Sequence record: OL856099
Reading direction: 5' to 3' (one strand)
Origin: Shigella phage CWP003
Length of the DNA: 64,000 nt
How positions within the stretch are numbered: position 1 is the stretch's first letter; each line of letters starts with the position of its first letter. The notes beneath the pieces were generated by a model. The model had not been told where the DNA came from. It worked only from the letters and a program-made list of their open reading frames with translations, and made no database searches. Made by a program: the position numbers and the translations under genes. This document shows, piece after piece, positions 1-64,000 of the stretch.

Positions 1-327
1 AGGAATATGACGGTTGCTGTCATTATTTGGTTTAATAATGAGCATAAAAACGATTAGAAAGATGATGGCTGATATACTTAATTCAATCAGCGCGGCCTGA
101 GATATGGATTGATCTTCATGATACTGCTTTTGCATTTCTGCTTTCTTCTGAGCGCAAACTTCAGGCGATATATAATCGCCTTTTGAGTTGCCATAATAAA
201 TCTCGCCATTCTCAGAAATAAGTCTGCCGCAAATATCCGTTTCAGCCTTTGCGCTTGACATCATAATAACGGTGCCGATGATAGCCGCAATGGTCCAGAT
301 TAGCAGTTGCGATAAAGTGTTGTTCAT
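1..327 (-). CDS. Partial CDS (N-terminus in window, 3' end beyond window start); small membrane or secreted protein
   Basis: ATG at complement 327..325 preceded by AAAGAGG; open for 109 codons to the window edge by manual translation; hydrophobic N-terminal segment (LLIWTIAAIIGTVIMM) and a second hydrophobic stretch (AIIFLIVFMLII). Not in the ORF track because it has no stop in the window. Confidence 0.4.
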   Translation of the reverse strand, partial: MNNTLSQLLIWTIAAIIGTVIMMSSAKAETDICGRLISENGEIYYGNSKGDYISPEVCAQKKAEMQKQYHEDQSISQAALIELSISAIIFLIVFMLIIKPNNDSNRHIP

Positions 328-523
328 GATAACCTCTTTAAATTCCCTTCCCGATGTGGGAAGGGTGAATATTATTTTACGCGAAAGAATAAGCGCGTGC
401 CACACAGCGAGTCCCAACGGCCTTCACCATCCCATACCGACCCAATGCCAGCGGTGATTACACCAGCAGAATTGGCGGCATTGGCCCAGGCAAGTCGTTT
501 AAGCTTCCAACTGCACCAACGAT

Positions 524-787
524 TCACAGTTCGCCTCCAGACTTCAAAATTAATCCCGCATATATTATTGCCAGAGCTAAAGGCGCACCGTCGCCAGCCT
601 CTCTATTCTCTTTGATTTGAAGAGTATCTTTTAGGAATTGAAGTTGAACGTTAAACTCATTTTCGATTCCAAGCACAACAGCAAGTTCTTTTACAGAATC
701 TGCATATGCCTTGTCTAGCACTTCTTTTGGTAATGTTAAAGTCAATTCATTCGCCATTTTCTTTCCACTCCACAAATGTACTGCCAC
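524..787 (-). CDS. Hypothetical protein
   Basis: Track ORF; true start may be the internal Met (MANELT...). No recognised motif. Confidence 0.3.
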   Translation of the reverse strand: MAVHLWSGKKMANELTLTLPKEVLDKAYADSVKELAVVLGIENEFNVQLQFLKDTLQIKENREAGDGAPLALAIIYAGLILKSGGEL

Positions 788-968
788 TTGTTTCTCTATT
801 TAGCAGGTATCTGCCGCGCATTCCACGAAGGCTGAACTCAACCGTCGATGGATTAGATTTTGAAAGCCACATCACTTGACCGTCGAACGGTCCGCCAACG
901 CATGTGTATTTGGCCTTTGGCTCACTCCTTTTGGGCCGCTTTGCCCGCTCTTTGATTGATAGTCTCAT
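747..968 (-). CDS. Hypothetical protein
   Basis: Track ORF in a leftward tandem with neighbours. Confidence 0.3.
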   Translation of the reverse strand: MRLSIKERAKRPKRSEPKAKYTCVGGPFDGQVMWLSKSNPSTVEFSLRGMRGRYLLNRETSGSTFVEWKENGE

Positions 969-1183
969 CAGTCTTCACCTTGAGATTCAAGACAAGTAAG
1001 AACAAGCCACGTCATCGGAAGAATCAAAACCAGAGAAATAAGTGACCAAATGGACCAACACAAGATGACAGACTTGAATGTGTGAACGTCGCCAAACGCA
1101 GCAGTGAAACAAAATCCCATTACGAAAGCAATCGCTGTGGAGTGATTATCAATGGCTTTGATGGCGCGGTCGATGAGTTTCAT
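968..1183 (-). CDS. Small membrane protein (two predicted TM helices)
   Basis: Track ORF; hydrophobic stretches AIAFVMGFCFTAAF and LISLVLILPMTWLVL. Confidence 0.4.
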   Translation of the reverse strand: MKLIDRAIKAIDNHSTAIAFVMGFCFTAAFGDVHTFKSVILCWSIWSLISLVLILPMTWLVLTCLESQGED

Positions 1184-1331
1184 ATTACCTCCGGTTTTGA
1201 GTTAATATGATTATAATGCAGAATTTCAGAAAGGCAAACTTTTTGTGAATTTAAATTAAAAAAATGGCCAGAAATAATCTGGCCAAAAAGATCACCCTTT
1301 ATCCACTACTAAGCTGGAATCATAATTTTAC

Positions 1332-1361
1332 TTGATATAGCTGTCTCAAGCAAACTATAAT
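1332..1361 (+). promoter_or_regulatory. Sigma70-like promoter (TTGATA, 18 nt spacer, TATAAT) abutting the annotated terL ATG
   Basis: Read directly from sequence; the -10 ends 1 nt before ATG 1362. Confidence 0.3.
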
Positions 1362-2822
1362 ATGAATAAAATATTAACACATAATTGGAAAGTCATGTAC
1401 CAGTTGAATCCTGCTTTAAGAGAAGTCTGGAAGACGAAAGCGCGATACAAAGTCATATACGGCGGTCGTGCATCTTCCAAATCGCACGATGCCGCTGGTT
1501 TTGCTATTTATTTAGCGGCAAACTTCAAATTAAAATTCCTTTGCGTTCGACAATTCCAGAACAAGATTTCTGAATCAGTATATACGCTATTAAAAGATAA
1601 AATAGAGATTTCTGATTTTAAAGACGAGTTCAACTTATTAAAGAACTCTATCGAACACAAAAGAACAAAATCTGAATTTTTATTTTACGGTATCGCACGC
1701 AACGTTGACGAAATCAAATCAACAGAAGGTGTTGATGTTCTTTGGCTTGAAGAAGCGCATGCACTGACTGAAGAGCAATGGGACATTATTGAGCCGACAA
1801 TTCGTAAGGAAGGGTCCGAAATATGGATCATATTTAACCCTGATGAAGAGGCTGATTTCGTCTACCAGAACTTTGTCATGCGACCGCCGAAAAATGCCAT
1901 CGTTAAGAAGATTAACTGGCAGGACAATCCATTCTTGTCGCAAACAATGCTGGATGTTATCGCTGGCATGTATGAGCGCGACCCGAAAAAGGCAGAACAC
2001 GTTTATGGCGGAGTGCCGAAGACAGGCGGCGATAAGTCGGTCATCAACCGTGCATTCGTCAAAGCCGCGCTAAACCTCCACAAACACCCTACGCTGGGAT
2101 GGAGCTTGTCAGGGTCTAACCGTATAGGCTTCGACGTGGCGGACGACGGCGACGACTTAAACGCCACAGCATTTGTCACAGGCAACGTATTACGTGGCAT
2201 CAAGACATGGGAAGGTCTGGAAGATGAATTGCTTAAGTCCGCAAGCGGAGTCTGGAAAGACGCATTGACATTCGGCGCATCAATCACCTATGACGCCATC
2301 GGTGTTGGTGCATTTGCTGGTTCAAAATTTGATGAGCTTAATGAGTATGCAATCCATGAAAATCCAACATTCCCAAGAATCGAATTTAATGCGTTCAACG
2401 CGCAAGGTGCTGTTGATGATCCTGATGACGTTTTCCTTGAGTTACCACACGTTGAAATACTCAATAAAGACCATTTCGCAAACATAAAAGCGCAAAAATG
2501 GACTGAGATTGCCGAACGATTCAGAAAGACATATGAGTATGCGACAGGGCAGGCCGTATATCCGACTGATGAGTTGATTTCCATTGACACAGACGGCATC
2601 CCAGAACTTGGGATTCCTGCTTGGACTGCGGAAGAGATTGAGACGTTTCTTTTTGAGATGTCAGCGCCGCGCAAAGATACGTCTGTTCTTGGTAAGTTCA
2701 AAGTTGAATCGAAAAAAGATATGGCAAAGCGTGGAGTCAAATCGCCTAACAAAGCGGACGCAGCAATTATGGCATTGATGAAACCAATTGTTGCAGCATC
2801 CGGCTTCTTCTCTAACCTTTAA
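1362..2822 (+). CDS. terL: Terminase large subunit
   Basis: 486 aa; Walker A-like GGRASSKSHDA near the N-terminus, acidic ATPase-coupling region and C-terminal nuclease-like region typical of TerL; sits at the head of the structural module. Start may instead be Met12 (1395). Confidence 0.85.
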   Translation: MNKILTHNWKVMYQLNPALREVWKTKARYKVIYGGRASSKSHDAAGFAIYLAANFKLKFLCVRQFQNKISESVYTLLKDKIEISDFKDEFNLLKNSIEHKRTKSEFLFYGIARNVDEIKSTEGVDVLWLEEAHALTEEQWDIIEPTIRKEGSEIWIIFNPDEEADFVYQNFVMRPPKNAIVKKINWQDNPFLSQTMLDVIAGMYERDPKKAEHVYGGVPKTGGDKSVINRAFVKAALNLHKHPTLGWSLSGSNRIGFDVADDGDDLNATAFVTGNVLRGIKTWEGLEDELLKSASGVWKDALTFGASITYDAIGVGAFAGSKFDELNEYAIHENPTFPRIEFNAFNAQGAVDDPDDVFLELPHVEILNKDHFANIKAQKWTEIAERFRKTYEYATGQAVYPTDELISIDTDGIPELGIPAWTAEEIETFLFEMSAPRKDTSVLGKFKVESKKDMAKRGVKSPNKADAAIMALMKPIVAASGFFSNL

Positions 2823-2825
2823 CAA

Positions 2826-3065
2826 TTAAAGCATTCCGTGCTGAAGGTCGAGCTTTCTTGCGGCAAACGACCTGGCACGGAATCGCTTACCCGCCCTTAC
2901 TGCCTGTCGAATTTTCTTTTGCAAACACTTACGGTCAAAATCGTTGCGGTCGACGGCTTCGAGTAAATCGCGACGCAGTGCACCCAGTGTCGACTTTTCG
3001 GAGACTTCAACGCCCAGCGCGGCTGCAACATCTTTCAAAACATCGAGTTCGGTTAAAGTTCTCAT
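2826..3065 (-). CDS. Small basic protein with SAP/Rho-N-like helix motif
   Basis: 79 aa; LTELDVLKDVAAALGVEVSEKSTLGALRRDLL resembles SAP/Rho_N; lysine/arginine-rich C-terminus; overlaps the upstream gene by 4 nt. Confidence 0.45.
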   Translation of the reverse strand: MRTLTELDVLKDVAAALGVEVSEKSTLGALRRDLLEAVDRNDFDRKCLQKKIRQAVRAGKRFRARSFAARKLDLQHGML

Positions 3066-3478
3066 TTGATAATCCCCTTGATGTCCGATTCTGCCATAAA
3101 GATTGGAGTGCTGCCGCCAGGAACAATCGAGCGCGTGACCTTGTCAAACATATCGTTTTCTTCAACTTGAATACGATAAAATTTATTTTTGGATGAAGAT
3201 GGGCACAATCCCATAAATTTGCCGATGCCGCGAACGCATTCATCTTCAAAGTATACTGTTTCACCTTGAATGGAGTCGATGTCGTCTACTGGATAGACCT
3301 TGCGACCCAATAGCCACTCATCCAAAGTCGCCTGCAAGACGTTGCGCGCATCTAAAATCCACGGGTCAATAGTAGCACCTTCATATCGCGCAGCAGTGGC
3401 CTTTGCCAGTTCTTCATATTCGCATACGTTAACGACTTCGCCGTTGTGCAAGACGACAAATACAATTGTTGTGCTCAT
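3062..3478 (-). CDS. Hypothetical protein, first gene of a convergent two-gene cassette
   Basis: 138 aa track ORF on the opposite strand to flanking terL and portal; no recognised motif. Confidence 0.45.
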   Translation of the reverse strand: MSTTIVFVVLHNGEVVNVCEYEELAKATAARYEGATIDPWILDARNVLQATLDEWLLGRKVYPVDDIDSIQGETVYFEDECVRGIGKFMGLCPSSSKNKFYRIQVEENDMFDKVTRSIVPGGSTPIFMAESDIKGIIK

Positions 3479-3573
3479 TTCAATCTCCTTTCGTTTGGTT
3501 AACTAAAATATAACTCAAAATGATACAAAAGCAAAATATTTTATGAACTATTTATGATCACCATACATATCAT

Positions 3574-3602
3574 TTGCTTACAAACACATGAATATTTATA
3601 AT
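3574..3602 (+). promoter_or_regulatory. Sigma70-like promoter upstream of portal (TTGCTT, 17 nt spacer, TATAAT)
   Basis: Read from sequence in the divergent intergenic region 3479-3640. Confidence 0.4.
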
Positions 3603-3607
3603 ATAGA

Positions 3608-6016
3608 TTGATTCCCTTTCACTGTCAGGTGGCGTTAACAATGAAAATTCTTGGCATAAAACTCTGGGAGAAGACGCAACCAGAAGCCGAACCAGCGGAG
3701 ATGCCGCCAGGCGACCCATTGGCACCGTTTGAACGCCTTGAAAGGCGCGGCAGCGGTCAACGCTGGGAAAAGACTGAAAGCAATCGACCGACCTTTAAAA
3801 CGGTTGATGACTTCCCTTTATATGAGCCTGATATTAATGGCGATGGTGTTGCAATCATAAAAGGTCGTTCAGTCGATTCCGCAACAGTATCCAAAAAGGT
3901 TATGGATAATGCCTTAAAGAACATCAGTTCAGAAGGGCAAGTAAACCCATACACAGTACCTATTCAACTTCAAAACTGGTATTTGTCACAGTCATTCATC
4001 GGCTATCAAGCTTGTGCCATCATCGCACAGCATTGGCTGGTGAACAAGGCGTGTTCCATGGTAGGCCGCGATGCGGTCCGTAAAGGTTGGGAAGTAAAAT
4101 CCAGTTCTGAGTCAGAATTGTCAGTACAGGCAAGCGAACGCCTAAAGCAAATTGATAAAGAATTTAATATCAAAGAGCACTTAGTTGAAGCCGAACGATT
4201 CAAAAATATTTTTGGTATCCGCGTCATCATATTTGATGTGCGTAGCGATGACCCAGAATATTACAGCAAGCCTTTTAACATTGATGGCGTGACAAAGGGG
4301 TCTTATAAGGGAATCATTCAGGTTGACCCTTATTGGATGATGCCGTTTCTGACGTCTGAAAACACAGCAGACCCTGCATCACAGCACTTCTATGACCCAG
4401 AATATTGGGTAATCAGCGGACAACGTTATCATCGCAGCCACCTCATAATCTTGCGCAACGATGAGCCAGCTGATATTCTCAAGCCGACTTATATTTACGG
4501 CGGCATTCCTCTGACTCAGCAGATTTATGAACGCATCTATGCCGCTGAACGTACCGCCAACGAAGCGCCATTGCTGGCGATGTCCAAGCGTACAACGACG
4601 CTGCGGACCGACGTTGACAAGGCTATTGCCAATGAGCGGTCTTTTGCAGAACGTCTGATGATGTGGATCAAGTACCGCGACAACTATGCAGTCAAAGTGC
4701 TTGGCCAAAAAGAAGAGATGGACCAGTTTGACATCAACTTGTCAGACTTCGACAGCATCATCATGAACCAGTACCAGCTTGTGGCCGCAATCGCAAAAGT
4801 TCCGTCGACCAAACTGCTTGGGACTTCGCCAAAAGGCTTTAACGCCACTGGTGAATTCGAGATGGTCAGCTATCACGAAGAGTTGGAAACGTGCCAGCAG
4901 CATGACCTGACAAAAATTCTCGACCGCCATTACAAAATCCTTCTCAAATCAGAAGGGGTGAATGTCGATGTTAAGGTTGCATGGGAACCAGTTGGCTCAC
5001 TTACTGCTACTCAACTTGCAGAAATCAATGATAAGCGAGCCAACACTGGCAAAACTCTTATTGATGCTGGCGTCATTTCTCCTGATGAAGAGCGCGACCG
5101 CATCAAAGACGACAAAAACAGCGGCTACAACCGTCTGCCGGAAGACGCAGCAGAAGAAACCCCAGGGATGTCTCCAGAGAATATGGCATTGCTTGGCAAG
5201 TCTGCTGGTGAAGTCCTGCAAGGTAAGGCCGATATTGAACAGGCGAAAGCTGATGTCGTTAAGATGGGCGGCCAGTTCTATAGCGAAACAGGTATTATGC
5301 CAGAGGGTGCCGCGCGTGGTGAGTTGGCGGAAAACCCTGACAAAGCGCCTGTCGAAATCAACATGGACGATACCGATGATGAATCAAGCCATCAGGTTGA
5401 TGTCCTAACGCAGTTGAAAGAAGGGCTGGAGGGTATTGCGGATTACTACCTGAAAGAAGGTCAGGATGTGGATTTTGACCCTCAAAAAGATTCACGGTCG
5501 GTGCAACCGTCTACCCTTCCAAGCGTTAAAGGACACGTCGTCAACTTACGCCACAACGTGGGTAAAATGGACGCAGCATCATTACCTAAGATGAAGTTGC
5601 ACGGAATGATTCTTGGCATTGAGAATCCGCGAAACAGCATTCGTAGAGGAAACAGCCTTGACGGTGAATGGGCCGTGAAGATGCCGCACCACTACGGATT
5701 CATCAAGGGCACCAAGGGCGCAGACGGTGATGAAGTCGACTGTTTTGTGGGTCCAAATCTTAAGTCGCCGAAAGTCTTTATCGTGAACCAAAACGATAAC
5801 TACTCTGGCGAGTTTGATGAACACAAGTGTATGCTTGGATTCGATTCAGCAGAAGAAGCGAAAGAAGCTTATCAAGCATCATTTGGTAACGGTTGGAACG
5901 GATTCGACTCAATCCACGAATTAGATGTGAACTCATTCAAGGAGTGGTTGAAGGGTGATTGCTCTCAAGCATACGGAGCACTCAATAATCCTACTAATTC
6001 ACCGAAGCAAGGTTGA
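3608..6016 (+). CDS. Portal protein
   Basis: About 790-800 aa; position directly after terL and before a Mu F-like gene. Track start is TTG; a likelier start is ATG 3641 (MKILG) with AGGTGG upstream. Confidence 0.7.
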   Translation: MIPFHCQVALTMKILGIKLWEKTQPEAEPAEMPPGDPLAPFERLERRGSGQRWEKTESNRPTFKTVDDFPLYEPDINGDGVAIIKGRSVDSATVSKKVMDNALKNISSEGQVNPYTVPIQLQNWYLSQSFIGYQACAIIAQHWLVNKACSMVGRDAVRKGWEVKSSSESELSVQASERLKQIDKEFNIKEHLVEAERFKNIFGIRVIIFDVRSDDPEYYSKPFNIDGVTKGSYKGIIQVDPYWMMPFLTSENTADPASQHFYDPEYWVISGQRYHRSHLIILRNDEPADILKPTYIYGGIPLTQQIYERIYAAERTANEAPLLAMSKRTTTLRTDVDKAIANERSFAERLMMWIKYRDNYAVKVLGQKEEMDQFDINLSDFDSIIMNQYQLVAAIAKVPSTKLLGTSPKGFNATGEFEMVSYHEELETCQQHDLTKILDRHYKILLKSEGVNVDVKVAWEPVGSLTATQLAEINDKRANTGKTLIDAGVISPDEERDRIKDDKNSGYNRLPEDAAEETPGMSPENMALLGKSAGEVLQGKADIEQAKADVVKMGGQFYSETGIMPEGAARGELAENPDKAPVEINMDDTDDESSHQVDVLTQLKEGLEGIADYYLKEGQDVDFDPQKDSRSVQPSTLPSVKGHVVNLRHNVGKMDAASLPKMKLHGMILGIENPRNSIRRGNSLDGEWAVKMPHHYGFIKGTKGADGDEVDCFVGPNLKSPKVFIVNQNDNYSGEFDEHKCMLGFDSAEEAKEAYQASFGNGWNGFDSIHELDVNSFKEWLKGDCSQAYGALNNPTNSPKQG

Positions 6017-7988: not shown

Positions 7989-8256
7989 ACGTATCATCCG
8001 TATCAAGTAAGTAGTTGTTTTCAAAAGAATCTTACGGATGATACGGATGATACGCGTTGCCGCGATACTTTATAGGAATTCAAATAAATTAATTTAAAAT
8101 TATATATCTAATTTAATTTTATTTTTTTATAAACTCTTATATATGAAAAGTATCCGTATCATCCGTATCATCCGTAGCACACCAGTGATAGCGCGGCTTA
8201 TACACTGATACGGATAAAAATACGCCTCATTTTATCCGTATCATCCGTATCACACT
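7989..8256. repeat. Iteron locus 1: tandem and inverted 9-mers ATCCGTATC/GATACGGAT flanking an AT-rich core
   Basis: Seen directly: TATCATCCGTATCA (7991), CTTACGGATGATACGGATGATACG (8031), AT-rich 8080-8150, GTATCCGTATCATCCGTATCATCCGTAGC (8151), TGATACGGATAAAAATACG (8206), TTATCCGTATCATCCGTATCAC (8232). Confidence 0.65.
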
Positions 8257-24727: not shown

Positions 24728-27466
24728 ATGCAAAAGTTTGACACAAACCTGTTGCAAAACCTTAAGTGGATGCAGAACAACGCGCCAAACATCACATCTT
24801 TGGTTCAGAAGAAGAGTGACTGGTATGAGCGATATCAAGATCAGTTTTGGATTGACTGGTACAAGAACATATTCAACATTGATACTTGTGATGCAATGGG
24901 CATCTATATTTGGTGTGACATCCTATGCATACCAAGGGATTTTGTTGACTTAAGCAACTATGAGCACAACTGGGCGTTTGGACCCACACGCGACAACTTC
25001 GAAGGGCCGGACAATATCGGCGGCAACTTCTTTGGTGCTGGCGGAAAGGTTGTGAAAAACATCGAAGAAGCCCGCATCCTTCTGAAGCTTCGTTATCTGA
25101 CGCTTACAAGTGATGGCCGCATAGAAAGCATCAACCGTATGCTTAAGTGGATTTTCAACCGTGGAGAAGATTGGGATTACTCTTCATCGCGCTACGCATA
25201 TGTGACAGATAATACTCAAGGCGCGGTGTCTTCTTCTGAAGCAACAAACGGCTCATTCCTTCTGTACGACTGGCAGGGGTCAACTGAGATTCAGCACGAT
25301 TATAAACAAGTTCTTTTGAGCCACGGCAACAACGCAGGACTTACCATAAGTGGGGTGGCAGGGACCGTTTCGCGAATGGCACACCCAGACTGGTATTCAT
25401 GGGGCAATGGTTCCGGCGCTGGTATTGTCGGCGGCGATACACGACAATATGGCGGCCCTGACTATTACGGCCAACTGTGCGGTGACTACCCAGGAGAGGC
25501 CATAGAGAATTTCGCCAACGCAGTACGGGTCATCAAGACCGCTTCCAGCGGCGAGCCTGTGTATTCTTTGGCCAATAATCCAAGCGCCCAATCTATTGCG
25601 CTTCCTTCTCAGGCTGGTGTCAACGTTTGCTATAGCTTCTACATAAAAGTGCTTTCTGAAAACGTGGCTTCTGTTTCCGTAACAGAGAACAGTGATGCAT
25701 CGAGTAATGGAAAACTTTTCGACCCAGTGACTGGGCAGTTCAATCTTGACTCTTCTTTGAGTTATTTCATCACAGGCAAGTTCGACGGTGTGAGAAGGGA
25801 ATCAAACCGTGGTGGCATCAAGGCAATCGGCGGCGATTGGTACAGAATCTGGATTGTAGAGCAAACTGCAAACGCTACGGCTGGGGTGAAAACAAGCTTT
25901 TCAATTGAGTTGAAAGCAACTGCCGCTGGATCAACCCAGACTCGCGAATTGCCTGAAGGGTCTGATGCGCTTCTTTTTGGATACTCCATTTGTGTTTGCG
26001 ACCCTGTTCAAAATCCTAATGGGCCTGAGCCTTATTTCTATGGGACTCAAAATCCTCCTGCAGATGGAACGGCAATCCTGTCTGTTACGGCAGGAACGCT
26101 CAACAACATATCTTGCGCAAACGGTCCGTTGACCACAAGGGATGGCGTGGTAGGTGAATCATTCATGCAGCCTGGTTCATCGCTTGCATACTCTGGTTCA
26201 ATCGGCGGCTACCCGTACCCAGGAAACGCAACATTGATTGCAGAGACAGATGGAATCAGACGCTCATGGAACGTTAGCCGACTGGACGGCGTACCGCCGC
26301 CGCCGACCGCTGACTATTACATGGAATATGTCATCGGGCCTTATTTCGCCAACAACTTATCCGACAACTTTAAGACGCTAGTTGGCGACAGGAATGAAGG
26401 ATTCTTGCCAGCAAATGCCGGAATACGTTGGCAGCTTTACCAAGAAGTCGCAGACTTATCTGATATTGATTTGACCGTCAGCAACATAACAGACACGCGA
26501 GTAGGATTCGAAACGGAAGGTGTCGCATGGATTAACACTGACGGCATCATCAGAGTTGGCGGCATAAACGAGTGGCCGTTGAACAACTTCAAAGGTGTTA
26601 TACGACAGCTTGAATCTTTGAAAGGTGTGAACCAAGTTATCGACGGCGCACTTGTCAACGACTATTCAATCTCAAAAGCATCAAGAGATGACTTTGGTCG
26701 TGAAATCCCACGTGCTGCGATCACAAACTACTGGCGATACACACAGCCCAATGACGGCACATCTTTTGGAAATATCGTCAAGGACGGAGATAACACGGTA
26801 ACGGCGACGCCAATCAGCGGTGTGCCCAACCAGTTCCCATCATTCAAGCTTTCCGCTACAATAGGGACTGTGCCAGCGTCCGGCTATGCACGTGCTGTAC
26901 TTGCTACTAAATACACTGGCAACCTGACTGGTCCTTTGTCATTTATCGCAATAGTTAAAAACAACACGGTAAACGGTCAAAAACTTTTCGTAACCGTACC
27001 GGATGGTATGGGCGGCTATATCCCTAAATTCTACAGCATAGGCGCAGGTGATTTGCAACGCATCGAAATTGACCTTGCCGCTGAGATTGTTGCAGGAACG
27101 ACTTGGGATGGTTCGACAGGTGGAATCAGCATTGGTTTGATATCAGGGAAAGACTTGCCGACCGAAGTCGGTACGACTCTTGAACTTGATATTTTAAGCT
27201 TGATGCTTGTTTCTGGTAATACGATGAATGCGCTTGCGATTTCAACAAGCGAAGACTTTGCAAAGAAAACTGCAACTTCTATATACATCAAAAACCCAGG
27301 GTCACTGGCGACTGGAGTTCAATTGATAGCTTCGAATGGGGATGTTGTAGCGACAGTAAACTTTCCAAGAAGTGCTGCTGGCGGTTATGTTTCAAGCATG
27401 AATATAACTGACTCAACTGGTGATTGGGCATCAACCCTTTTATCAAAAATTAAATACATCGTGTAG
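24728..27466 (+). CDS. Large tail fibre or baseplate protein
   Basis: 912 aa; Gly/Ser/Thr-rich; precedes the distal tail fibre gene. Confidence 0.45.
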   Translation: MQKFDTNLLQNLKWMQNNAPNITSLVQKKSDWYERYQDQFWIDWYKNIFNIDTCDAMGIYIWCDILCIPRDFVDLSNYEHNWAFGPTRDNFEGPDNIGGNFFGAGGKVVKNIEEARILLKLRYLTLTSDGRIESINRMLKWIFNRGEDWDYSSSRYAYVTDNTQGAVSSSEATNGSFLLYDWQGSTEIQHDYKQVLLSHGNNAGLTISGVAGTVSRMAHPDWYSWGNGSGAGIVGGDTRQYGGPDYYGQLCGDYPGEAIENFANAVRVIKTASSGEPVYSLANNPSAQSIALPSQAGVNVCYSFYIKVLSENVASVSVTENSDASSNGKLFDPVTGQFNLDSSLSYFITGKFDGVRRESNRGGIKAIGGDWYRIWIVEQTANATAGVKTSFSIELKATAAGSTQTRELPEGSDALLFGYSICVCDPVQNPNGPEPYFYGTQNPPADGTAILSVTAGTLNNISCANGPLTTRDGVVGESFMQPGSSLAYSGSIGGYPYPGNATLIAETDGIRRSWNVSRLDGVPPPPTADYYMEYVIGPYFANNLSDNFKTLVGDRNEGFLPANAGIRWQLYQEVADLSDIDLTVSNITDTRVGFETEGVAWINTDGIIRVGGINEWPLNNFKGVIRQLESLKGVNQVIDGALVNDYSISKASRDDFGREIPRAAITNYWRYTQPNDGTSFGNIVKDGDNTVTATPISGVPNQFPSFKLSATIGTVPASGYARAVLATKYTGNLTGPLSFIAIVKNNTVNGQKLFVTVPDGMGGYIPKFYSIGAGDLQRIEIDLAAEIVAGTTWDGSTGGISIGLISGKDLPTEVGTTLELDILSLMLVSGNTMNALAISTSEDFAKKTATSIYIKNPGSLATGVQLIASNGDVVATVNFPRSAAGGYVSSMNITDSTGDWASTLLSKIKYIV

Positions 27467-27476
27467 AGGAACGGCA

Positions 27477-29261
27477 ATGCCAACACTTATTAACAGACCT
27501 TTCGCGCAAAGCGGTGATGTATCCGTGGTGCCGGATGCAAGCCCAAGCGGTTACGTGAACTTCCAGCGCGGCTACACACCTGACTATGCGCTTGCCCTGG
27601 AGGCTGGAAACGTCGCCGCGAAAGCTGTTGAGCGCGAATCCATGAACTGGTTGCTGAATTTGATTACAGACAACCTTATGTTTATTCAAGATCATGGCGC
27701 TCAACAATATTTCTCTTCTGACTTGAAGCCGGATGGATACCCGAAAAACGCCATCGTAGTAAGCAACTCTGGAACGCCTTCAGCGCCTGAGTGGCGCATC
27801 TTTCAAAGCGTGGTCGACGGCAACACAAGCGCCGTACCAGCCAACGGAGAAACGGAATCTTGGCAGGAATTAACGCTGCCCAGCGAAGCGCGAAAATACA
27901 TTCCGATGCCTGCTGGCGGCGATGCGCAAAACCCGTACTTTGTTCGTGGATTGATTTCAAGTTTTGTGGACTTCGATAATATCACGACTTCCACAACTAT
28001 CGTGATTCAATCCGATTCCGTCGCCGCTCTGTGCTCTAACATCCCGAATGCGGTTGGCGCAACGAAGGTTGCAGGTCGGCTGCAGGTCTGCGCTTGGCAG
28101 GTCGATGCGCAGACCTTTGCCTTGCAGCAATATACATCAATGAATGGCTATTTGTTTACTCGCTCTTATGCTTCTGGTGCTTGGAGTGCTTGGATTCAAA
28201 ATGCCACTGTTCAAGACGTGCAAATTGGAACGCCGAATCTTGCATCAGGTAAAGGAGCGCAAGACATAATCCTTACCGTCCCAGCAGGTTATTCATGGCC
28301 TCCGTCAGCAGGTAGTCGCCTGACAATCGTCAATGATGTAACGACTACCGGACCTGTCACAGTGACCATTGGTGTAAACAAAGTTGCCGTTCTTGGATTC
28401 GACGGCAGCGAGTTGCCAGCTGGCGCTATCGTAGGCCTGTTGCCATTCACCATCATCTATGACGGCACTGTTTGGCGTCTTCTTCAGGCATTCGGCGCGG
28501 CGCAAATCGGCGTTGATGCTACGGAGCCGCAGCAGTTTGTTACCAAAAGGCAACTTGACGCGCTTGCCGCGAAGTTGATTACCATGGGCGACGTATTCGA
28601 AGTTGGTGAGACTCGATTCCTTACCAACGGTACTAACCCAAACACTAAACTGGGCGCTTACGGTCAGGTATGGACAAGGTTGCCTGATAACATGGTGATT
28701 CGCACGTCTGGCACGGCGCGAAACGGTCTTGATACAGGCGGTGCAGACTCTGTTACTCTTACCGCTGCAATGCTTCCACTCCACAATCACAGTGTGAACA
28801 TTACCACGCGACAAAGTGGTCCATGGTCAAATACCACTGGAGACGCAGGCAACCATAACCATATAGGTGATACAAGCCAAAACGGTGCTCACTCTCACGG
28901 TATGGATGCGGCTGGCAACCACCATCACGACAGTGGATGGGGCGAGGCGTTTGCCGACCAAGCTCGATACGGAGTTTATGATGGAACAAACAACAACATT
29001 GGAAGCAGAAAGACGGATTATGATAACTACAAGTTCAACACTTCAACTAACGGCAACCATGTCCACAATATTCAATCTTCTGGTTCACACACCCATGGCT
29101 TGAATATTCAATTTTCCGGCAATCACAGCCACAGCTATACACTTCCCGCTCACACTCACGATGTGGTCGGTAACACTGGCGATGCAGGACAGTCCGTGCC
29201 GACGGCTGTTGCTACTTTGCCGCGATACGTTGTTTTGAATGGCTGGTACAGAAGCGCATAA
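27477..29261 (+). CDS. Tail fibre protein with His-rich HxH repeat tip
   Basis: Start ATG 27477 (AGAGGA RBS) after the previous stop; C-terminus carries repeated HxH motifs (HNHS, GNHNHIG, AHSHG, NHHHD, NHVHN, SHTHG, NHSHS, AHTHD) like metal-binding fibre tips. Confidence 0.6.
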   Translation: MPTLINRPFAQSGDVSVVPDASPSGYVNFQRGYTPDYALALEAGNVAAKAVERESMNWLLNLITDNLMFIQDHGAQQYFSSDLKPDGYPKNAIVVSNSGTPSAPEWRIFQSVVDGNTSAVPANGETESWQELTLPSEARKYIPMPAGGDAQNPYFVRGLISSFVDFDNITTSTTIVIQSDSVAALCSNIPNAVGATKVAGRLQVCAWQVDAQTFALQQYTSMNGYLFTRSYASGAWSAWIQNATVQDVQIGTPNLASGKGAQDIILTVPAGYSWPPSAGSRLTIVNDVTTTGPVTVTIGVNKVAVLGFDGSELPAGAIVGLLPFTIIYDGTVWRLLQAFGAAQIGVDATEPQQFVTKRQLDALAAKLITMGDVFEVGETRFLTNGTNPNTKLGAYGQVWTRLPDNMVIRTSGTARNGLDTGGADSVTLTAAMLPLHNHSVNITTRQSGPWSNTTGDAGNHNHIGDTSQNGAHSHGMDAAGNHHHDSGWGEAFADQARYGVYDGTNNNIGSRKTDYDNYKFNTSTNGNHVHNIQSSGSHTHGLNIQFSGNHSHSYTLPAHTHDVVGNTGDAGQSVPTAVATLPRYVVLNGWYRSA

Positions 29262-29269
29262 GGTGATTT

Positions 29270-29914
29270 ATGATTAATGCAAACGTAATATCTAAAGGGA
29301 CCGGATGCAGCATGGATGTTGCAGAGAAATGGGTGGACCATTTCAAGCAGGCTTGTGAGCACTACGGAATCAAAAGCAAGAATGCCATCGCGGCATTCCT
29401 TGCAAACGTAGGAGTAGAGACGGGCAGCTTGAAGACCTTTGTGGAAAATCTCAACTACTCTGCTCAAGGTCTTGCCAATACATGGCCTAGTCGTTACAGC
29501 GTCAACGGTCGCTCTGGAAGTGCCCCGAACTCATTGGCCCTGTCGATTGCCCGTAAACCTGTGGAAATCGCCAATAATACATATGCAAACCGCATGGGCA
29601 ACGGTTCAGTAGCATCTGGCGACGGTTGGAAGTACCGTGGCCGTGGTGCCATTCAGCTGACTGGAAAGGCCAACTATGCGGAATATACGCGTCAATCAGG
29701 CTATGATGCATTGAACAATCCTGATATTCTGACTGAACCAAAATACATTGCTGACAGCGCGGCATGGTTCTTTAAGAATAGCGGCTGTATTCCTCTTGCG
29801 GATGCAGGAAATTTTGATTCAACCGTTAAGCGGATTAACGGGGCCGCGCCGAACGCAGCAAACCACGGCGAGTTGCGAAGAAAGCGTTACAAGGATGCAT
29901 TAGCAGTTATGTAA
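29270..29914 (+). CDS. Endolysin, glycoside hydrolase family 19-like lysozyme
   Basis: 214 aa; motifs FLANVGVETGSL, NLNYSAQGL, DGWKYRGRGAIQLTGKANY, SAAWFF match GH19 phage endolysins as recalled from memory (no search run). Confidence 0.8.
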   Translation: MINANVISKGTGCSMDVAEKWVDHFKQACEHYGIKSKNAIAAFLANVGVETGSLKTFVENLNYSAQGLANTWPSRYSVNGRSGSAPNSLALSIARKPVEIANNTYANRMGNGSVASGDGWKYRGRGAIQLTGKANYAEYTRQSGYDALNNPDILTEPKYIADSAAWFFKNSGCIPLADAGNFDSTVKRINGAAPNAANHGELRRKRYKDALAVM

Positions 29915-29946: not shown

Positions 29947-30170
29947 ACGGCTTCAACTTGGACGGGCGGAGCGGAACTTGTATCAATGTCTGGCAAGTCG
30001 AAGTAATACCCCGCCATACCAATTGCACCCACAATCGCGGCCCGTGCCACCTTGTTGCTAATTGACTCCCCAATAAGCTTTACCAACAGGGATAAGATTT
30101 GAGACGTCAAAGCCTTTTTCAGCCTTTTGTTTTCTTCCAAATCTTTCTGCATAACTACCACCCATGTCAA
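29940..30170 (-). CDS. Small membrane protein, holin-like candidate
   Basis: 76 aa; hydrophobic segment AAIVGAIGMAGYYF; convergent with the endolysin. Confidence 0.3.
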   Translation of the reverse strand: MTWVVVMQKDLEENKRLKKALTSQILSLLVKLIGESISNKVARAAIVGAIGMAGYYFDLPDIDTSSAPPVQVEAVK

Positions 30171-30709
30171 CGCACTTCCTGTGTCTTAACATTACCTGAA
30201 GCATCTCTCAAGGGCAGTGGATAGTAGGCCATTTGGTAGTCTGATACGCCTTCAATGTGATAAAACACGATTACGTCTTTGCTGTTGATGAGCATGTTAA
30301 CGACATCTGATTTATCTTCTGGAGTGAGTATTAGTGCGCCGCCTGTCCTGCTGTCTACTGCAACAGGGTATGTCTTGTCGACAAGGCCGCTGTCCAATGT
30401 ATTATACCTGACAACGATTTCAGGGGCATCAACTTTTGCCATTGACATTCCGAACACAAACGACACGACCTGCCGACCGCGATCATTCATTACGCACATC
30501 TTTTCTTTGTCAAATCTTTCTTTTATTACGTCGTATTTATTCCAGCAAAACTCAAATGACTGCCCATTGTTAAAATATCTTGTCAAAACTTTTGCACTTC
30601 CATTCGGCGGCGTAAACATATTTTCAGCCGATGCAGTCTTGGTGAAGAATATAACTGTCAGCATAGCCATGATGATGATCAAAACAATCTTTAATTTGTT
30701 CGCTTTCAT
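30167..30709 (-). CDS. Secreted or periplasmic protein with N-terminal signal peptide
   Basis: 180 aa; N-terminus MKANKLKIVLIIIMAMLTVIFFTKTASAEN fits a signal peptide with an A-x-A cleavage site. Confidence 0.5.
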   Translation of the reverse strand: MKANKLKIVLIIIMAMLTVIFFTKTASAENMFTPPNGSAKVLTRYFNNGQSFEFCWNKYDVIKERFDKEKMCVMNDRGRQVVSFVFGMSMAKVDAPEIVVRYNTLDSGLVDKTYPVAVDSRTGGALILTPEDKSDVVNMLINSKDVIVFYHIEGVSDYQMAYYPLPLRDASGNVKTQEVR

Positions 30710-60300: not shown

Positions 60301-60660
60301 TGATACGCGTAAAATACGGCTAAAAATTAAGCGTATCATGGCTGCAGGCCGCGCCGTTCCTGGATTCCTCTTTTCCAAATTGGTACACCCTTACGTCATG
60401 ATACGTCATGGTTTTTTATCCGTATCAGTGTACAGCCCTTGCCGCGCCTGGCTTGTACATTAATCTTACGGATGATACGGATAAAACTGGGCATCGTTAT
60501 ATATATAATTTGAAAAATTAATTAACTCCATTTTGAATTAATTTAAATTAATTTTTTTCTACATCCTCATACTTATGTTAATTTATATATAACGTATTAT
60601 CCGTAAGATATAAGTAAAAACAAAGACTTGCGGCAATACGGATGATACGTCATGATACGC
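60301..60660. repeat. Iteron locus 2: GATACGGAT/ATCCGTATC and GATACGTCATG repeats around an AT-rich core; shares a 21-mer with locus 1
   Basis: Seen directly: ACGTCATGATACGTCATGG, TTTTATCCGTATCAG, AATCTTACGGATGATACGGAT (identical to 8029-8049), AT-rich 60490-60590, TTATCCGTAAGAT, CAATACGGATGATACGTCATGATACGC. Confidence 0.65.
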
Positions 60661-60806
60661 TTCAACCAGCCAGTAGCGGCTAAGTCATTGATTTGCATAA
60701 CAAGCGGCGAAAGGGATGGACTTCTTTTATACGTATCAAACAGTACACCACGCACCACGGTCCGATATTCATTCAGCACTATGATTTATGTACGTTTACA
60801 GCCAAT

Positions 60807-60835
60807 TTGAACATCAATCTGCACTTGAATATAAT
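60807..60835 (+). promoter_or_regulatory. Sigma70-like promoter (TTGAAC, 17 nt spacer, TATAAT)
   Basis: Read from sequence; followed by two tandem TTGCACTAT motifs overlapping the RBS and ATG of the downstream gene. Confidence 0.45.
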
Positions 60836-60887
60836 GTTCAATCATTATATAATTCACACTATTAATTTGCACTATGGGATTTGCACT

Positions 60888-61361
60888 ATGAGTCAAGATT
60901 ATGTAGCAATGCCTGAAGACTTTGAAGACCCGCGATTTGCAGAGCATAATCAGGCATTATTCGATGAGTTCATCGACCTTGTTATTCAGGGCCATGACAT
61001 GCGCGCAGCTTTTGCACTAGTATTTGGCATGGAGGTTGCGACCGATAACTACACTGGCCAGCGAATCCTGTGCACTCAGCGCAATCCGTACTACAAGATG
61101 CGCTACAAAAAGCGTATGGAAGAGATGCCATTGAAGGAATTGTGGAGCGTAAAGAGTTCCATTCACAATTTAGTGAAGCTTGTGCGTGATCCAGAAGTCG
61201 CAGCATCAGCCAAGCTTAATGCCATTCGTGAACTGAATATCATCTACGGCATTACGATGATTGATGAAAACGGCAATAGTAAAATGGGCCGTTCCATGGA
61301 TGATTTCTACAAGGATTTTGGAGAGGCGGCCAAAGAGGGTGAGCAATTCTCCCGCCACTAG
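60888..61361 (+). CDS. Small helical DNA-binding-like protein (possible regulator or small terminase-like protein)
   Basis: 157 aa from ATG 60888 in frame with track ORF 60693..61361; central stretch IDLVIQGHDMRAAFALVFGMEVATDNYTGQRIL reads as an HTH-like segment. Functional call speculative. Confidence 0.4.
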   Translation: MSQDYVAMPEDFEDPRFAEHNQALFDEFIDLVIQGHDMRAAFALVFGMEVATDNYTGQRILCTQRNPYYKMRYKKRMEEMPLKELWSVKSSIHNLVKLVRDPEVAASAKLNAIRELNIIYGITMIDENGNSKMGRSMDDFYKDFGEAAKEGEQFSRH

Positions 61362-61380
61362 CCAATTTGCACTATAAAAC

Positions 61381-61414
61381 GGCCCTAGAACACATTTTCT
61401 CCACTTCTAGGGCC
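61381..61414. other. Perfect 10-bp hairpin (GGCCCTAGAA...TTCTAGGGCC, 14-nt loop) just after a motif copy
   Basis: Seen in sequence; no U-run follows on the plus strand. Confidence 0.4.
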
Positions 61415-61475
61415 ATCGGTAATACGACGGGGAAGGCTGCAACCATAAACGCGTTAGAAAGTGTATTATTATAAG

Positions 61476-61739
61476 TCATCTTTTAGTCACTTTACGTAAC
61501 AATTTACGACCTTCCGCCGTCCAGTCGAACGACTCCACCAGCAAATTTGCACTATAACCTAAGACGATGCGCCCTTTCTCGTTATCTACCCGCCAACAAG
61601 TCTCAAATAGCATTCGATTTGCACTATTAACTATCGCCGCAACGCGCGTTGGGTAAGCGCAATTTGCACTATGGTCATAAAGGGATAAGGTGCGACCACT
61701 TCCGATGGACAACGTAGCGATGAGAATAAGCGTATTCAT
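61476..61739 (-). CDS. Possible small ORF overlapping three motif copies (each read as Ser-Ala-Asn)
   Basis: Track ORF; GGTGG RBS before the ATG; coding status uncertain because the repeated motif dominates. Confidence 0.3.
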   Translation of the reverse strand: MNTLILIATLSIGSGRTLSLYDHSANCAYPTRVAAIVNSANRMLFETCWRVDNEKGRIVLGYSANLLVESFDWTAEGRKLLRKVTKR

Positions 61740-61789
61740 AAGCCACCAATTTGCACTATGAAAAGCGACCCCGAAGGGCCGCCATTCGA

Positions 61790-62416
61790 TTAGATAATCT
61801 GGAAGGTGTAGGACTTGTTGCCGAACTCGAAGTTCAAGCGTCCCGCTTCTTTAAGCTTCATGCGGAAGCGAATGTGCTTGCTATCCGGTAAGCCCAGCGC
61901 GGCGAACGCTACGCGGACTGATTTGAACTCGCCTACACCCTCGACCATAACGGCGTTACGGGTGAGACGCTTTTGCGCCACTTCCTTGTTATCCCAACTT
62001 TTTGCAATACCTTCGCTATTCGAACGGCGATGGGAAGGAGTTCCATTTTGCACTACGCAACTTGCACTATCGTTTAGGCCGCTTTTAACGAAGGCTTCAT
62101 ACTCTTCGTCGGTCATCGCGTCGAGTTCTTCCTGGGTCGGCTCGGCCTTTTTGACGACCGCACGCGCCTTATGCGTTTTTACATCGCTGGACACTTCCTC
62201 GCGCGGCTTCGCGTCTGGGATGGGCGATTCGTTGGACGGCTCATCGAGCGCGTTTAAGGACTCGATTAACGCGATTACGCGAGTCTCGGCGGTCCGGCGG
62301 TCCGCAAACTTCTTAATCGGTTTTGAGCCGGAATTTGCATTATAGAATGCAACGAGGTCGGCGGTCTTAGTTGCGATAACGTCGCCGCTAGTAGAAAAGC
62401 GATTTAAGCTAACCAT
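61790..62416 (-). CDS. Hypothetical protein (basic/acidic mixed), CpG-rich codon usage
   Basis: 208 aa track ORF; TAGGAG RBS 7 nt before the ATG; contains motif copies at 62048, 62062 and 62335. Confidence 0.5.
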   Translation of the reverse strand: MVSLNRFSTSGDVIATKTADLVAFYNANSGSKPIKKFADRRTAETRVIALIESLNALDEPSNESPIPDAKPREEVSSDVKTHKARAVVKKAEPTQEELDAMTDEEYEAFVKSGLNDSASCVVQNGTPSHRRSNSEGIAKSWDNKEVAQKRLTRNAVMVEGVGEFKSVRVAFAALGLPDSKHIRFRMKLKEAGRLNFEFGNKSYTFQII

Positions 62417-62496
62417 AATAAACTCCTATTTGTTAGGGCGCTAGGCGCGAAAGAATTTTATTAAAGCGCCGCGCACGACGCTCTAAAAATCCTCTC

Positions 62497-62811
62497 TTAC
62501 TCTTCGTCGTCTTCGATTAATTCGAGGGCGAAGGCGTAAGCTTTGCTATCGTAATTAACTAAAACGGCGAGTTCGAACTCGTTAATAAACGCCGTTTTAC
62601 CGCATAAATTTAATTCCGCATCGACTTCGAAGAATCCGTTTTCGTCGCGCTCTAAGCGAGAAGCAGCGAGTTGCTCGATTACCGTCGCGTCGTTAATTTC
62701 TTCGCCTAAGCGAACGCCGGAGAATTTCGCGAGAATTTCGCCGTAAGTAAGCGTAACGCCCTGGACTTCGGCGGTTGCGTTTTCGAGGGTAAAGCGGGTA
62801 ACGATAGCCAT
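62497..62811 (-). CDS. Small acidic protein
   Basis: 104 aa; TAGGAG RBS; acidic C-terminus (ELIEDDEE). Confidence 0.5.
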   Translation of the reverse strand: MAIVTRFTLENATAEVQGVTLTYGEILAKFSGVRLGEEINDATVIEQLAASRLERDENGFFEVDAELNLCGKTAFINEFELAVLVNYDSKAYAFALELIEDDEE

Positions 62812-62951
62812 AACAAACTCCTAGTTGGGAGAGGCGTTAACGACCTATTCGTTAACTCATCCCGTCCCGATATGAGTACATTATAATATAGTGTAGAAAA
62901 AAGTAAAGCACTTTTTCGATAAAAATGCGATAAATTATTTTATCTTTTTTC

Positions 62952-62979
62952 TTTACTTCTTCGTACACTCGCGTATACT
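62952..62979 (+). promoter_or_regulatory. Promoter A (TTTACT, 16 nt spacer, TATACT) followed by conserved box GTTTATATCGAGACGGG
   Basis: Read from sequence; paralogous to promoter B. Confidence 0.45.
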
Positions 62980-63035
62980 TGTTTATATCGAGACGGGCGA
63001 TGGCCCTTTCTTCTACTAGCATCGGGAGCTTTATT

Positions 63036-63338
63036 ATGACTACTTTAATCTCTTCCATCCTTACTTACGACGAAGACCGCTTAACCGTTCGCTCTCTTAT
63101 CGCCGCCGTTAACGCGGAACTCGAAACTAGCATTATTAAAGCGCGCGCCGTCGCCTTCGTCGGCCTTTCCTTCGACGATATTAAGTATGCAGAGTATAGC
63201 GCCATTCGCGTCGTTACTACCGACGATAACGCCGTTACCCTTATCGAGACGGTTACGCCTCGCGGCGAAGCGTTAATTATCGTCGAGTATATCGACGTAG
63301 AAGGCGATAAAGCTTATAAATATTTTATCGCAGAATAA
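63036..63338 (+). CDS. Small hypothetical protein
   Basis: 100 aa from ATG 63036 in frame with track ORF 62979..63338; CpG-rich codons. Confidence 0.45.
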   Translation: MTTLISSILTYDEDRLTVRSLIAAVNAELETSIIKARAVAFVGLSFDDIKYAEYSAIRVVTTDDNAVTLIETVTPRGEALIIVEYIDVEGDKAYKYFIAE

Positions 63339-63350
63339 CGAAAAAAGTGC

Positions 63351-63379
63351 TTTACTTCTTCGTACACTAAGACTATAAT
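63351..63379 (+). promoter_or_regulatory. Promoter B (TTTACT, 17 nt spacer, TATAAT) followed by conserved box GTTTTATATCGAGAGGGG and a 5'-UTR hairpin
   Basis: Read from sequence; hairpin GGTAGCGA-ATAGG-TCGCTACC at 63412-63432. Confidence 0.45.
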
Positions 63380-63446
63380 GTTTTATATCGAGAGGGGATG
63401 AGGTAGCGAATAGGTCGCTACCCTCCCGACTAACTAGGAGAATATT

Positions 63447-63737
63447 ATGATTACTTTAGCCGCTATCCGTTCCGCTCGCGTCGAAACTTCCGAAAACTCT
63501 AACGTATTTGGCGAAAAACTTAAAAACGTTTATCTCTTTAACGTAGATGCGACTATCGAAGAGCTTCATAGTCCTATCGATTTTAGCGAATTTACGGAAC
63601 TCGAAGAGGAAGATATTACTACCTTCCGCGTTACTATCGAAGGTAAGGTTTATTTTGCTACGGAGTTCGGCGGCGAATATCTCGCGGTATCCGAAGGCGA
63701 AGGCCGTTACTCTTTCTTTAAAATCGTCTCCTTATAA
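63447..63737 (+). CDS. Small acidic hypothetical protein
   Basis: 96 aa track ORF with AGGAGAA RBS. Confidence 0.45.
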   Translation: MITLAAIRSARVETSENSNVFGEKLKNVYLFNVDATIEELHSPIDFSEFTELEEEDITTFRVTIEGKVYFATEFGGEYLAVSEGEGRYSFFKIVSL

Positions 63738-63901
63738 TACCCTTCCGTTACTAATAGGCCGCGCTTAGTCGCGGCTTTTCTTCGTCCCTATCTCGATGCG
63801 CTTCTCCGCGAAAACTCCTTTATCCTTCCCTTCTTCGTCGCATAATCTTCGTCGAGATGCGCCTTAGTTCGCATAACAGGTATTACGTTAAATGGAGAAC
63901 A

Positions 63902-63975
63902 TCGCGTAAGTCCTTGTTTTATATAGACACCTATATCGGACCGTTAGGGAGGGTCGCGTAAGTCGTTGTTTTATA
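63902..63975. repeat. Two direct 22-bp repeats TCGCGTAAGTC(C/G)TTGTTTTATA
   Basis: Seen directly at 63902-63923 and 63954-63975; contain the same GTTTTATA core as the boxes downstream of promoters A and B. Confidence 0.5.
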
Positions 63976-64000
63976 AAGGCGCAAAACTTTCCCTTCGTTC

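Follow-up and report, generated by a model that had tools for sequence, protein, structure and literature searches.

A conserved baseplate-attached Wifcevirus tail fibre with a probable T4 gp37-type tip and a two-allele head cassette

Introduction

The subject of this report is a tail fibre gene at positions 27477–29261 of a 64,000-nucleotide (nt) stretch of Shigella phage CWP003 (record OL856099; this whole stretch is called the window below), which encodes a protein of 594 amino acids (aa) with a dense set of His-x-His (HxH) motifs towards its C-terminus. Tips of this kind are described for the long tail fibre protein gp37 of phage T4, in which three chains build a six-stranded needle with one buried iron per HxH triple, seven in total; the gp37 histidines are required for folding, and a small head binds lipopolysaccharide (LPS) and OmpC (PMC6957217). 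A collar–needle–head tip with HxH motifs has likewise been resolved by cryo-electron microscopy on both fibres of the Felixounavirus phage Bas63 (PMC12609058). For the opposite end of the protein, the relevant system is the Pbunavirus phage Pa193, where residues 1–340 of the tail fibre gp47 form three 'beads' and a hydrophobic loop (I41, L43) docks on an attachment loop of the wedge protein gp46 (PMC11456595).

Within the genus Wifcevirus itself, a T4-like tip with HxH motifs is already known, having been published for the orthologue of ManiWeber/Bas99 (Humolli et al. 2025, PLoS Biol, PMC11990801). The authors describe this orthologue, Gp32, as carrying a T4-like tip and conserved HxH motifs on the basis of AlphaFold-Multimer, and they regard it as highly conserved and as probably having 'a more mechanical role' (PMC11990801). 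Recognition of the tip therefore has little discovery value, as it is a textbook T4-type structure in print for a sister phage. Wifcevirus phages are nonetheless candidates for the biocontrol of O157 and Shiga toxin-producing Escherichia coli and are relatives of therapeutic Pbunavirus phages, and for engineering it is useful to know that 27477–29261 encodes the fibre that is conserved, and that the variable, T-shaped one is encoded elsewhere in the genome.

Results

Eight HxH motifs in a near mirror-symmetric array

The fibre protein contains exactly eight HxH motifs, all located within its last 159 aa (aa 436–561), which bears out the initial annotation, where eight or more had been placed in roughly the last 150 aa. 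The first four start at aa 436 (HNH), 460 (HNH), 472 (HSH) and 482 (HHH), and the last four at aa 528 (HVH), 538 (HTH), 550 (HSH) and 559 (HTH); together they hold 17 of the 18 histidines of the protein. A G/A-x-H-x-H context surrounds seven of the eight, and within the window the fibre open reading frame (ORF) alone is HxH-dense. Shuffling the whole protein produces a mean of 0.5 motifs and a maximum of 4, while shuffling aa 420–594 alone produces a mean of 1.5 and a maximum of 7, so that none of 20,000 shuffles reaches eight in either case.

The spacing of the motifs is close to mirror-symmetric, with intervals of 24, 12 and 10 aa, a 43-aa insert that corresponds to the head, and then intervals of 10, 12 and 9 aa. 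All eight motifs are present in 16 of 16 Wifcevirus orthologues. In addition, all 16 motif histidines are invariant in three full-length homologues that are 54, 51 and 32% identical by BLASTP (55, 51 and 35% when measured in the alignment), while the residue between the two histidines and the flanking residues do vary among homologues. Members of the wider family carry at least 4 and in some cases more than 10 motifs, with variation in number on both sides of the head, a pattern that fits the addition of rungs to, or their removal from, a hairpin needle.

Homology to the T4 gp37 tip

The family profile matches the T4 gp37 tip (PDB 2XGF) with an E value of 5.2e-12, though with a high HMMER bias term, and composition-adjusted BLASTP against gp37 residues 869–1017 returns E 1e-4 at 28% identity. 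Specifically, the descending motifs 5–8 pair one-to-one with gp37 H966/968, H980/982, H989/991 and H998/1000, in a residue numbering verified against H929/H931 of PMC6957217. The likeness extends to the overall layout. The gp37 tip comprises collar (D10), needle (D11) and head domains. As in its needle and head, HxH motifs occupy both arms of what would be a hairpin, with a small head separating them; the T4 tip has seven motifs (3+4) and 34 aa between the innermost histidines, compared with eight (4+4) and 43 aa here. The HxH motifs are probably structural elements rather than receptor-contacting residues. The gp37-like, metal-coordinating fibre tip that the initial annotation had proposed is supported by the needle homology with its descending motifs in register, by the motif layout, by the baseplate-fibre N-terminus described below and by the published AlphaFold-Multimer description of the orthologue (PMC11990801).

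Could the cluster instead be a His-rich low-complexity or generic metal-binding tail, whose similarity to gp37 is compositional? The high bias term of the 2XGF match points that way, as does a predicted monomer in which the HxH stretch is disordered; this model reaches a mean predicted local distance difference test score (pLDDT) of 55 overall and less than 50 in the needle, and it returned no Foldseek matches. Such needles fold only as trimers, however, so a poor monomer model is expected. Moreover, a compositional tail would leave unexplained the mirror-symmetric spacing around the head (10, 12, 24 ascending against 10, 12, 9 descending), the invariance of every histidine amid variable neighbours, the motif register retained by composition-adjusted BLASTP, and the gain and loss of motifs on both sides of the head among homologues. 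We regard it as very improbable.

A full-length word-indexed homology search retrieves at least four proteins; the C-terminal module is found by tblastn in 291 phage records, Felix O1-like and other Felixounavirus fibres among them, and an exhaustive search with the C-terminal part yields 247 representative proteins at E ≤ 1e-3. Felixounavirus fibres (Felix O1 and the long and short fibres of Bas63) can be aligned with the entire C-terminal 219 aa at 28–35% identity; these fibres have other N-terminal anchors and shafts, and those of Bas63 carry six to seven motifs. A related head domain is also present in chromosomal 'tail fiber proteins' of Photorhabdus and Xenorhabdus (P0005–P0014; Phage_fiber_2 plus Gp10_C), which differ in their N-termini and have only four HxH motifs, that is, a short needle. 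Over the 219 aa these proteins are 33–38% identical to the fibre by BLASTP and 42–47% in the alignment, and among database matches outside Wifcevirus-like phages their head is the closest, with DSGWGE..RYG.YD.T.NN.GS..DNYKFNTSTNG in common.

One such protein, a 306-aa 'tail fiber protein' of Xenorhabdus nematophila (L020, L021, 6001-6921), combines the head domain of the fibre of Escherichia phage vB_EcoM_WFH (WFH) with only four HxH motifs. It stands alone between a speB-like arginase-family gene and speA (arginine decarboxylase); metK lies close by, and phage or tailocin genes are absent within 6 kb.

The collar segments of the family profile show a weak match (E 0.074) to the gp10 C-domain (2FKK), and Pfam Gp10_C scores above cut-off in the homologues P0005, P0011 and P0019 but not in the 594-aa fibre. 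Pfam reports no significant domain of any kind, either for the 594-aa protein or for its C-terminal 219 aa alone; the PHROG assignments are tail protein and tail fibre. Two further tip types were considered and set aside. A gp12-type tip has no Pfam match, and the many-motif needle fits gp37 rather than a short-fibre tip; an iron-loaded spike apex of the P2 gpV or T4 gp5.4 type is ruled out by the position after the wedge genes, by the fibre N-terminus and by the presence of eight motifs rather than one.

A Pbunavirus-type N-terminus

The N-terminal part of the protein belongs to a different lineage of fibres. Residues 2–372 match the Pa193 tail fibre gp47 (PDB 9b45) with E 1.2e-31, and the docking-loop residues I41 and L43 align with L39 and L41 of the 594-aa fibre. 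The protein encoded immediately upstream likewise matches Pa193 gp46 (9b45) over aa 4–186 (E 9.6e-42), with WAFG...NF...GGNF kept, and is itself preceded by the gene for baseplate J. Because the N-terminus matches gp47 and the upstream gene matches gp46, the protein is a baseplate-anchored fibre of the Pbunavirus type. The resemblance to Pa193 thus covers about 370 N-terminal residues, the docking-loop hydrophobics, the upstream gp46 homologue and an equal gene order. It ends there: beyond aa ~372 no significant match to gp47 is obtained, the C-terminal parts being unrelated in sequence, and gp47 is 962 aa long compared with 594 aa here.

This anchor also sets the fibre apart from the T4 long fibre, which is built from four proteins, whereas here a single 594-aa protein with a Pbunavirus-type anchor makes up the fibre and a gp38-type chaperone gene is lacking next to it. 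Outside the tip, the two fibre proteins have nothing in common. No such gene is annotated nearby in WFH or Bas99, where the endolysin gene follows the fibre directly. A gp57A-like factor encoded elsewhere, or a host factor, may take the place of an adjacent chaperone.

Conservation of the fibre and comparison with the Bas99 orthologue

The best-matching gene is gp048 ('tail protein') of WFH, genus Wifcevirus, at 99.9% identity. Phage records that match the fibre gene number 28, of which 27 are named Escherichia phages and the last is a Wifcevirus WFH record, and every one contains it at full length with 86–99.9% nt identity. For protein comparisons, 16 orthologues were used, collected singly; an IMG/VR scan gave four loci, three of them apparent duplicates of GenBank genomes. 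Pairwise protein identity among the 16 is at least 94.6% (mean 96.8%), and the gene evolves under purifying selection, with a ratio of nonsynonymous to synonymous divergence (dN/dS) of 0.04 at a gene-wide synonymous divergence (dS) of 0.46. The fibre ranks with the best-conserved structural proteins in the genus. The phages that carry it have named hosts such as O157:H7, O16-restored K-12, an extended-spectrum beta-lactamase (ESBL) strain and Shigella flexneri.

The gene resembles its Bas99 orthologue at 94.2% nt identity over the full length, lies between wedge and endolysin genes as it does there, and encodes an identical set of eight HxH motifs. Gp32 of PMC11990801 most probably corresponds to Bas99_0031, because this is the only HxH-dense ORF. 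The numbers in that paper differ from the tags in PQ850618.1: Gp32 would be Bas99_0031 and Gp114, the T-shaped fibre, is Bas99_0109, and the tags 0032 and 0114 in PQ850618.1 belong to the endolysin and to a 71-aa hypothetical protein.

A two-allele recombination cassette in the head

Variation among the 16 orthologues is concentrated in one place. Variable columns amount to 2% in the anchor, 8% in the shaft, 7–9% in the collar and 14–15% in the needle, and rise to 34% in the head, where mean pairwise identity falls to 84% and the minimum to 70.5%. The head occurs as two alleles, one with F/Y-A-D-Q and without an extra Gly, the other with N-T/V/I-x-D and the extra Gly, and the distribution of these alleles is incongruent with the clustering of the remaining gene. 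For example, WFC and FEC19 are 98–100% identical in nucleotides along the gene and only 65–78% identical at aa ~475–520. In the head, dS rises to 1.1 (1.9 between alleles) against 0.46 gene-wide, with a dN/dS of 0.09; raised synonymous divergence combined with low dN/dS indicates old alleles moved by recombination and not ongoing positive selection. This two-allele cassette goes beyond the published description, which calls the protein invariable. As the only part of the gene exchanged in nature, the head cassette of ~130 nt offers a natural, minimal swap site for probing a secondary receptor.

The alleles do not follow O-serotype, since both occur among O157 phages (ECML-117 compared with FEC19 and Ro157lw) and among O16-dependent BASEL phages (Bas99 compared with Bas98, Bas100 and Bas101). 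It is conceivable, although we consider it rather unlikely, that the head acts as a second-layer specificity switch whose alleles discriminate between two forms of a secondary receptor that is itself conserved, for instance E. coli LPS core types or an allele of an outer-membrane protein. In that case, a fibre called invariable would contribute to host range unnoticed by assays centred on O-antigen.

Host range and the second, T-shaped fibre

Wifcevirus phages possess a second fibre, encoded in WFH by gp013 (NC_048194 5685–8009, minus strand; locus L003). This protein has a Peptidase_S74 intramolecular chaperone domain and matches an L-shaped fibre assembly (PDB 8hqz) with E 1e-125. It is a mosaic: of 38 matching records only 5 cover at least 80% of it, and the distal half also occurs in unrelated phages. 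This T-shaped fibre has gp12-like and T5-like receptor-binding domains, and published work ascribes variable O-antigen/glycan recognition to it (PMC11990801). The window lacks 4.6 kb of the genome, and the gene is located there, its start codon ~55 nt before window position 1; for this reason it was not visible to the initial annotation. A search for an N-terminal anchor shared between the two WFH fibres produced only a 53-aa bead-like local match (E 8e-4). It is this second fibre, and not the one at 27477–29261, that shows the divergence expected of a mosaic, strain-specific receptor-binding protein.

These results bear directly on the proposal, made in the initial annotation, that the HxH tip is the probable host-range determinant. 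As the principal determinant, whose differences would decide which strains are infected, the tip would be in keeping with T4, whose corresponding head recognises LPS and OmpC and changes specificity upon point mutation (PMC6957217); it would also account for the head being the only hypervariable part (34% of columns against 2–15% elsewhere) and for its exchange as a cassette between genes otherwise 98–100% identical. We nevertheless judge this role to be distinctly unlikely. Protein identity of at least 94.6% is maintained across 16 phages whose records name Shigella flexneri, an ESBL strain, O157:H7 and K-12 with O16, among others, as hosts; O157 phages and O16-dependent BASEL phages each include both head alleles; the dN/dS of the head together with its raised dS reflects old alleles rather than ongoing diversification, and the second fibre is far more variable and mosaic. 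In addition, all four BASEL Wifcevirus isolates depend totally on the O16 O-antigen, which the authors ascribe to the T-shaped fibre (Humolli et al. 2025, PMC11990801). The fibre is therefore probably not the main host-range switch of the phage. The proposed role is not well supported for the fibre as a whole, given its identity, its dN/dS of 0.04 and a variable second fibre, and finds some support in the 43-aa head, which is hypervariable and recombining; in a comparison across phages from different hosts, the head alone is swapped and its alleles do not follow the named hosts. WFH itself has a rather broad host range: it belongs to a group of phages that lyse more than 10 strains, and in this group lysis was not found to depend on serotype (PMC6563267).

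Proposed assembly and function

The explanation that best covers the whole, and that we hold to be highly probable, is a conserved baseplate-attached Wifcevirus fibre with a T4 gp37-type tip. The motifs and their conservation, the homology of each end of the protein, the synteny, the purifying selection and the exchange of the cassette are established by the analysis, whereas the trimer, the occupancy and identity of the metals, the receptor and the order of binding are inferred. By homology, the fibre is most likely a homotrimer. Its first ~370 aa would form an anchor and a beaded shaft, docking on the attachment loop of the upstream-encoded wedge protein as in Pa193, and its last ~220 aa would form a gp37-type distal tip, a collar interrupted by a hairpin that extends to the apex and returns. 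Three such chains would generate a six-stranded needle. In analogy to T4, the three copies of each HxH motif would together contribute six imidazoles around a single buried metal ion, which is Fe2+ in T4, giving up to eight metal rungs, four ascending and four descending, compared with seven in T4. If the HxH sets hold buried metal ions in this manner, the histidines serve as structural rivets that fold and stiffen the needle.

Receptor contact, again judging from T4, would fall to the 43-aa head between motifs 4 and 5. The near-invariance of the fibre among phages from a variety of E. coli and Shigella hosts makes a conserved surface structure its most likely target, perhaps LPS core or an outer-membrane protein; alternatively or additionally, the fibre might relay a binding signal to the baseplate. 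The two old head alleles exchanged by recombination would then represent two variants of this conserved contact, and strain-specific O-antigen recognition would be left to the second, mosaic T-shaped fibre.

A more specific role is that of T4 gp12, in which the fibre would bind irreversibly to conserved LPS core after the T-shaped fibres engage the O-antigen and would thereby trigger the baseplate, instead of serving as a reversible sensor that makes the first contact. This is possible, though on balance doubtful. At 594 aa, compared with 962 aa in Pa193 gp47, the fibre is short; it attaches directly to the wedge, is extremely conserved and has a collar that may be related to those of gp10 and gp12, features that suit such a role. 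Architecture speaks otherwise, since the combination of a long, many-motif HxH needle and a small head belongs to the T4 gp37 long-fibre tip, and the 594-aa fibre has no significant Pfam domain. T4 gp12, moreover, has a single metal site. The BASEL authors' proposal of 'a more mechanical role' agrees with a gp12-like function, yet the same paper calls the relationship of the two fibres 'unclear' (PMC11990801).

Feature coordinates and gene neighbourhood

The coordinates of the fibre gene, its parts and its immediate upstream neighbour are given in Table 1. The fibre is encoded by a single ORF that opens with ATG at 27477 and closes with a stop codon at 29259–29261.

Table 1. Features of the fibre locus in the window; the parts of the fibre are assigned by homology and motif layout
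Feature	Residues (aa)	Position (nt)	Strand	Remarks
Baseplate wedge/triplex protein, upstream		24728..27466	+	912 aa; DUF2612 at aa 4-186, homologous to Pa193 gp46
Shine-Dalgarno sequence		27466..27470	+	GAGGA; ATG 6 nt downstream; overlaps stop codon of upstream wedge gene
Tail fibre gene		27477..29261	+	594 aa plus stop; orthologue of WFH gp048 / HOV51_gp048 and ManiWeber Bas99_0031
N-terminal baseplate anchor, beads-on-a-string shaft, short neck	1-375	27477..28601	+	Homologous to Pa193 gp47 residues 4-368
Putative collar, N-terminal half (gp10_C / gp12-collar-like)	376-435	28602..28781	+	VGETRFL, NPNT, W..LPD, GGADSVTLTAAMLP
Ascending needle strand	436-484	28782..28928	+	HxH 1-4 (436, 460, 472, 482)
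Two-allele recombination cassette	about 478-520	about 28908-29036	+	~130 nt; sharply bounded
Head (apex) domain	485-527	28929..29057	+	DSGWGE...RYGVYD...NN.GS...DNYKFNTSTNG; most variable part
Descending needle strand	528-561	29058..29159	+	HxH 5-8 (528, 538, 550, 559)
Putative collar, C-terminal half	562-594	29160..29258	+	GNTG.AG...LPRYVVLNGWYRSA

The wedge protein is considerably longer than its relatives (912 aa, compared with 504 aa for Pa193 gp46 and 578 aa in the distant relative L022). Besides the segment at aa 4–186, it matches gp46 weakly at aa 509–572. Neither Pfam nor PDB gives a match for its ~400 extra residues, which might serve to dock the second fibre or provide an additional binding domain.

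Downstream, a GH19 endolysin ORF occupies 29270–29914 on the plus strand, with its ATG at 29270, 9 nt past the fibre stop and at the same start as in the Bas99 annotation; RefSeq places the WFH start 42 nt further downstream, giving 201 aa instead of 214 aa. The fibre–endolysin gene order is also kept in the 32%-identical relative P0004, which is encoded on a metagenomic contig. Just beyond, a minus-strand ORF at 30167–30709 encodes 180 aa with a hydrophobic, signal-like N-terminus (MKANKLKIVLIIIMAMLTVIFFTKTASA) and is annotated as hypothetical in WFH and Bas99.

Several other proteins of 155–306 aa are annotated as 'tail fiber protein' in these genomes, namely gp034 and gp038–gp040 of NC_048194 (L001 2180-5188) and Bas99_0006 (L019 5483-6403). 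They lie in the tail-tube/baseplate and head modules and none has an HxH cluster; judging from their position, they are apparently components of the tube or baseplate whose labels were transferred.

The window as a whole matches NC_048194 from position 8063 round the genome to 3471, with ~97.7% identity in the end regions, and so appears to be a close relative of WFH and not the deposited WFH genome. Specifically, the window ends (1–3939 and 60530–64000) are 97.6–97.8% identical to the WFH record, compared with 99.9% for the fibre gene, which indicates that the window comes from a close relative of WFH or that divergence from WFH is uneven along the genome.

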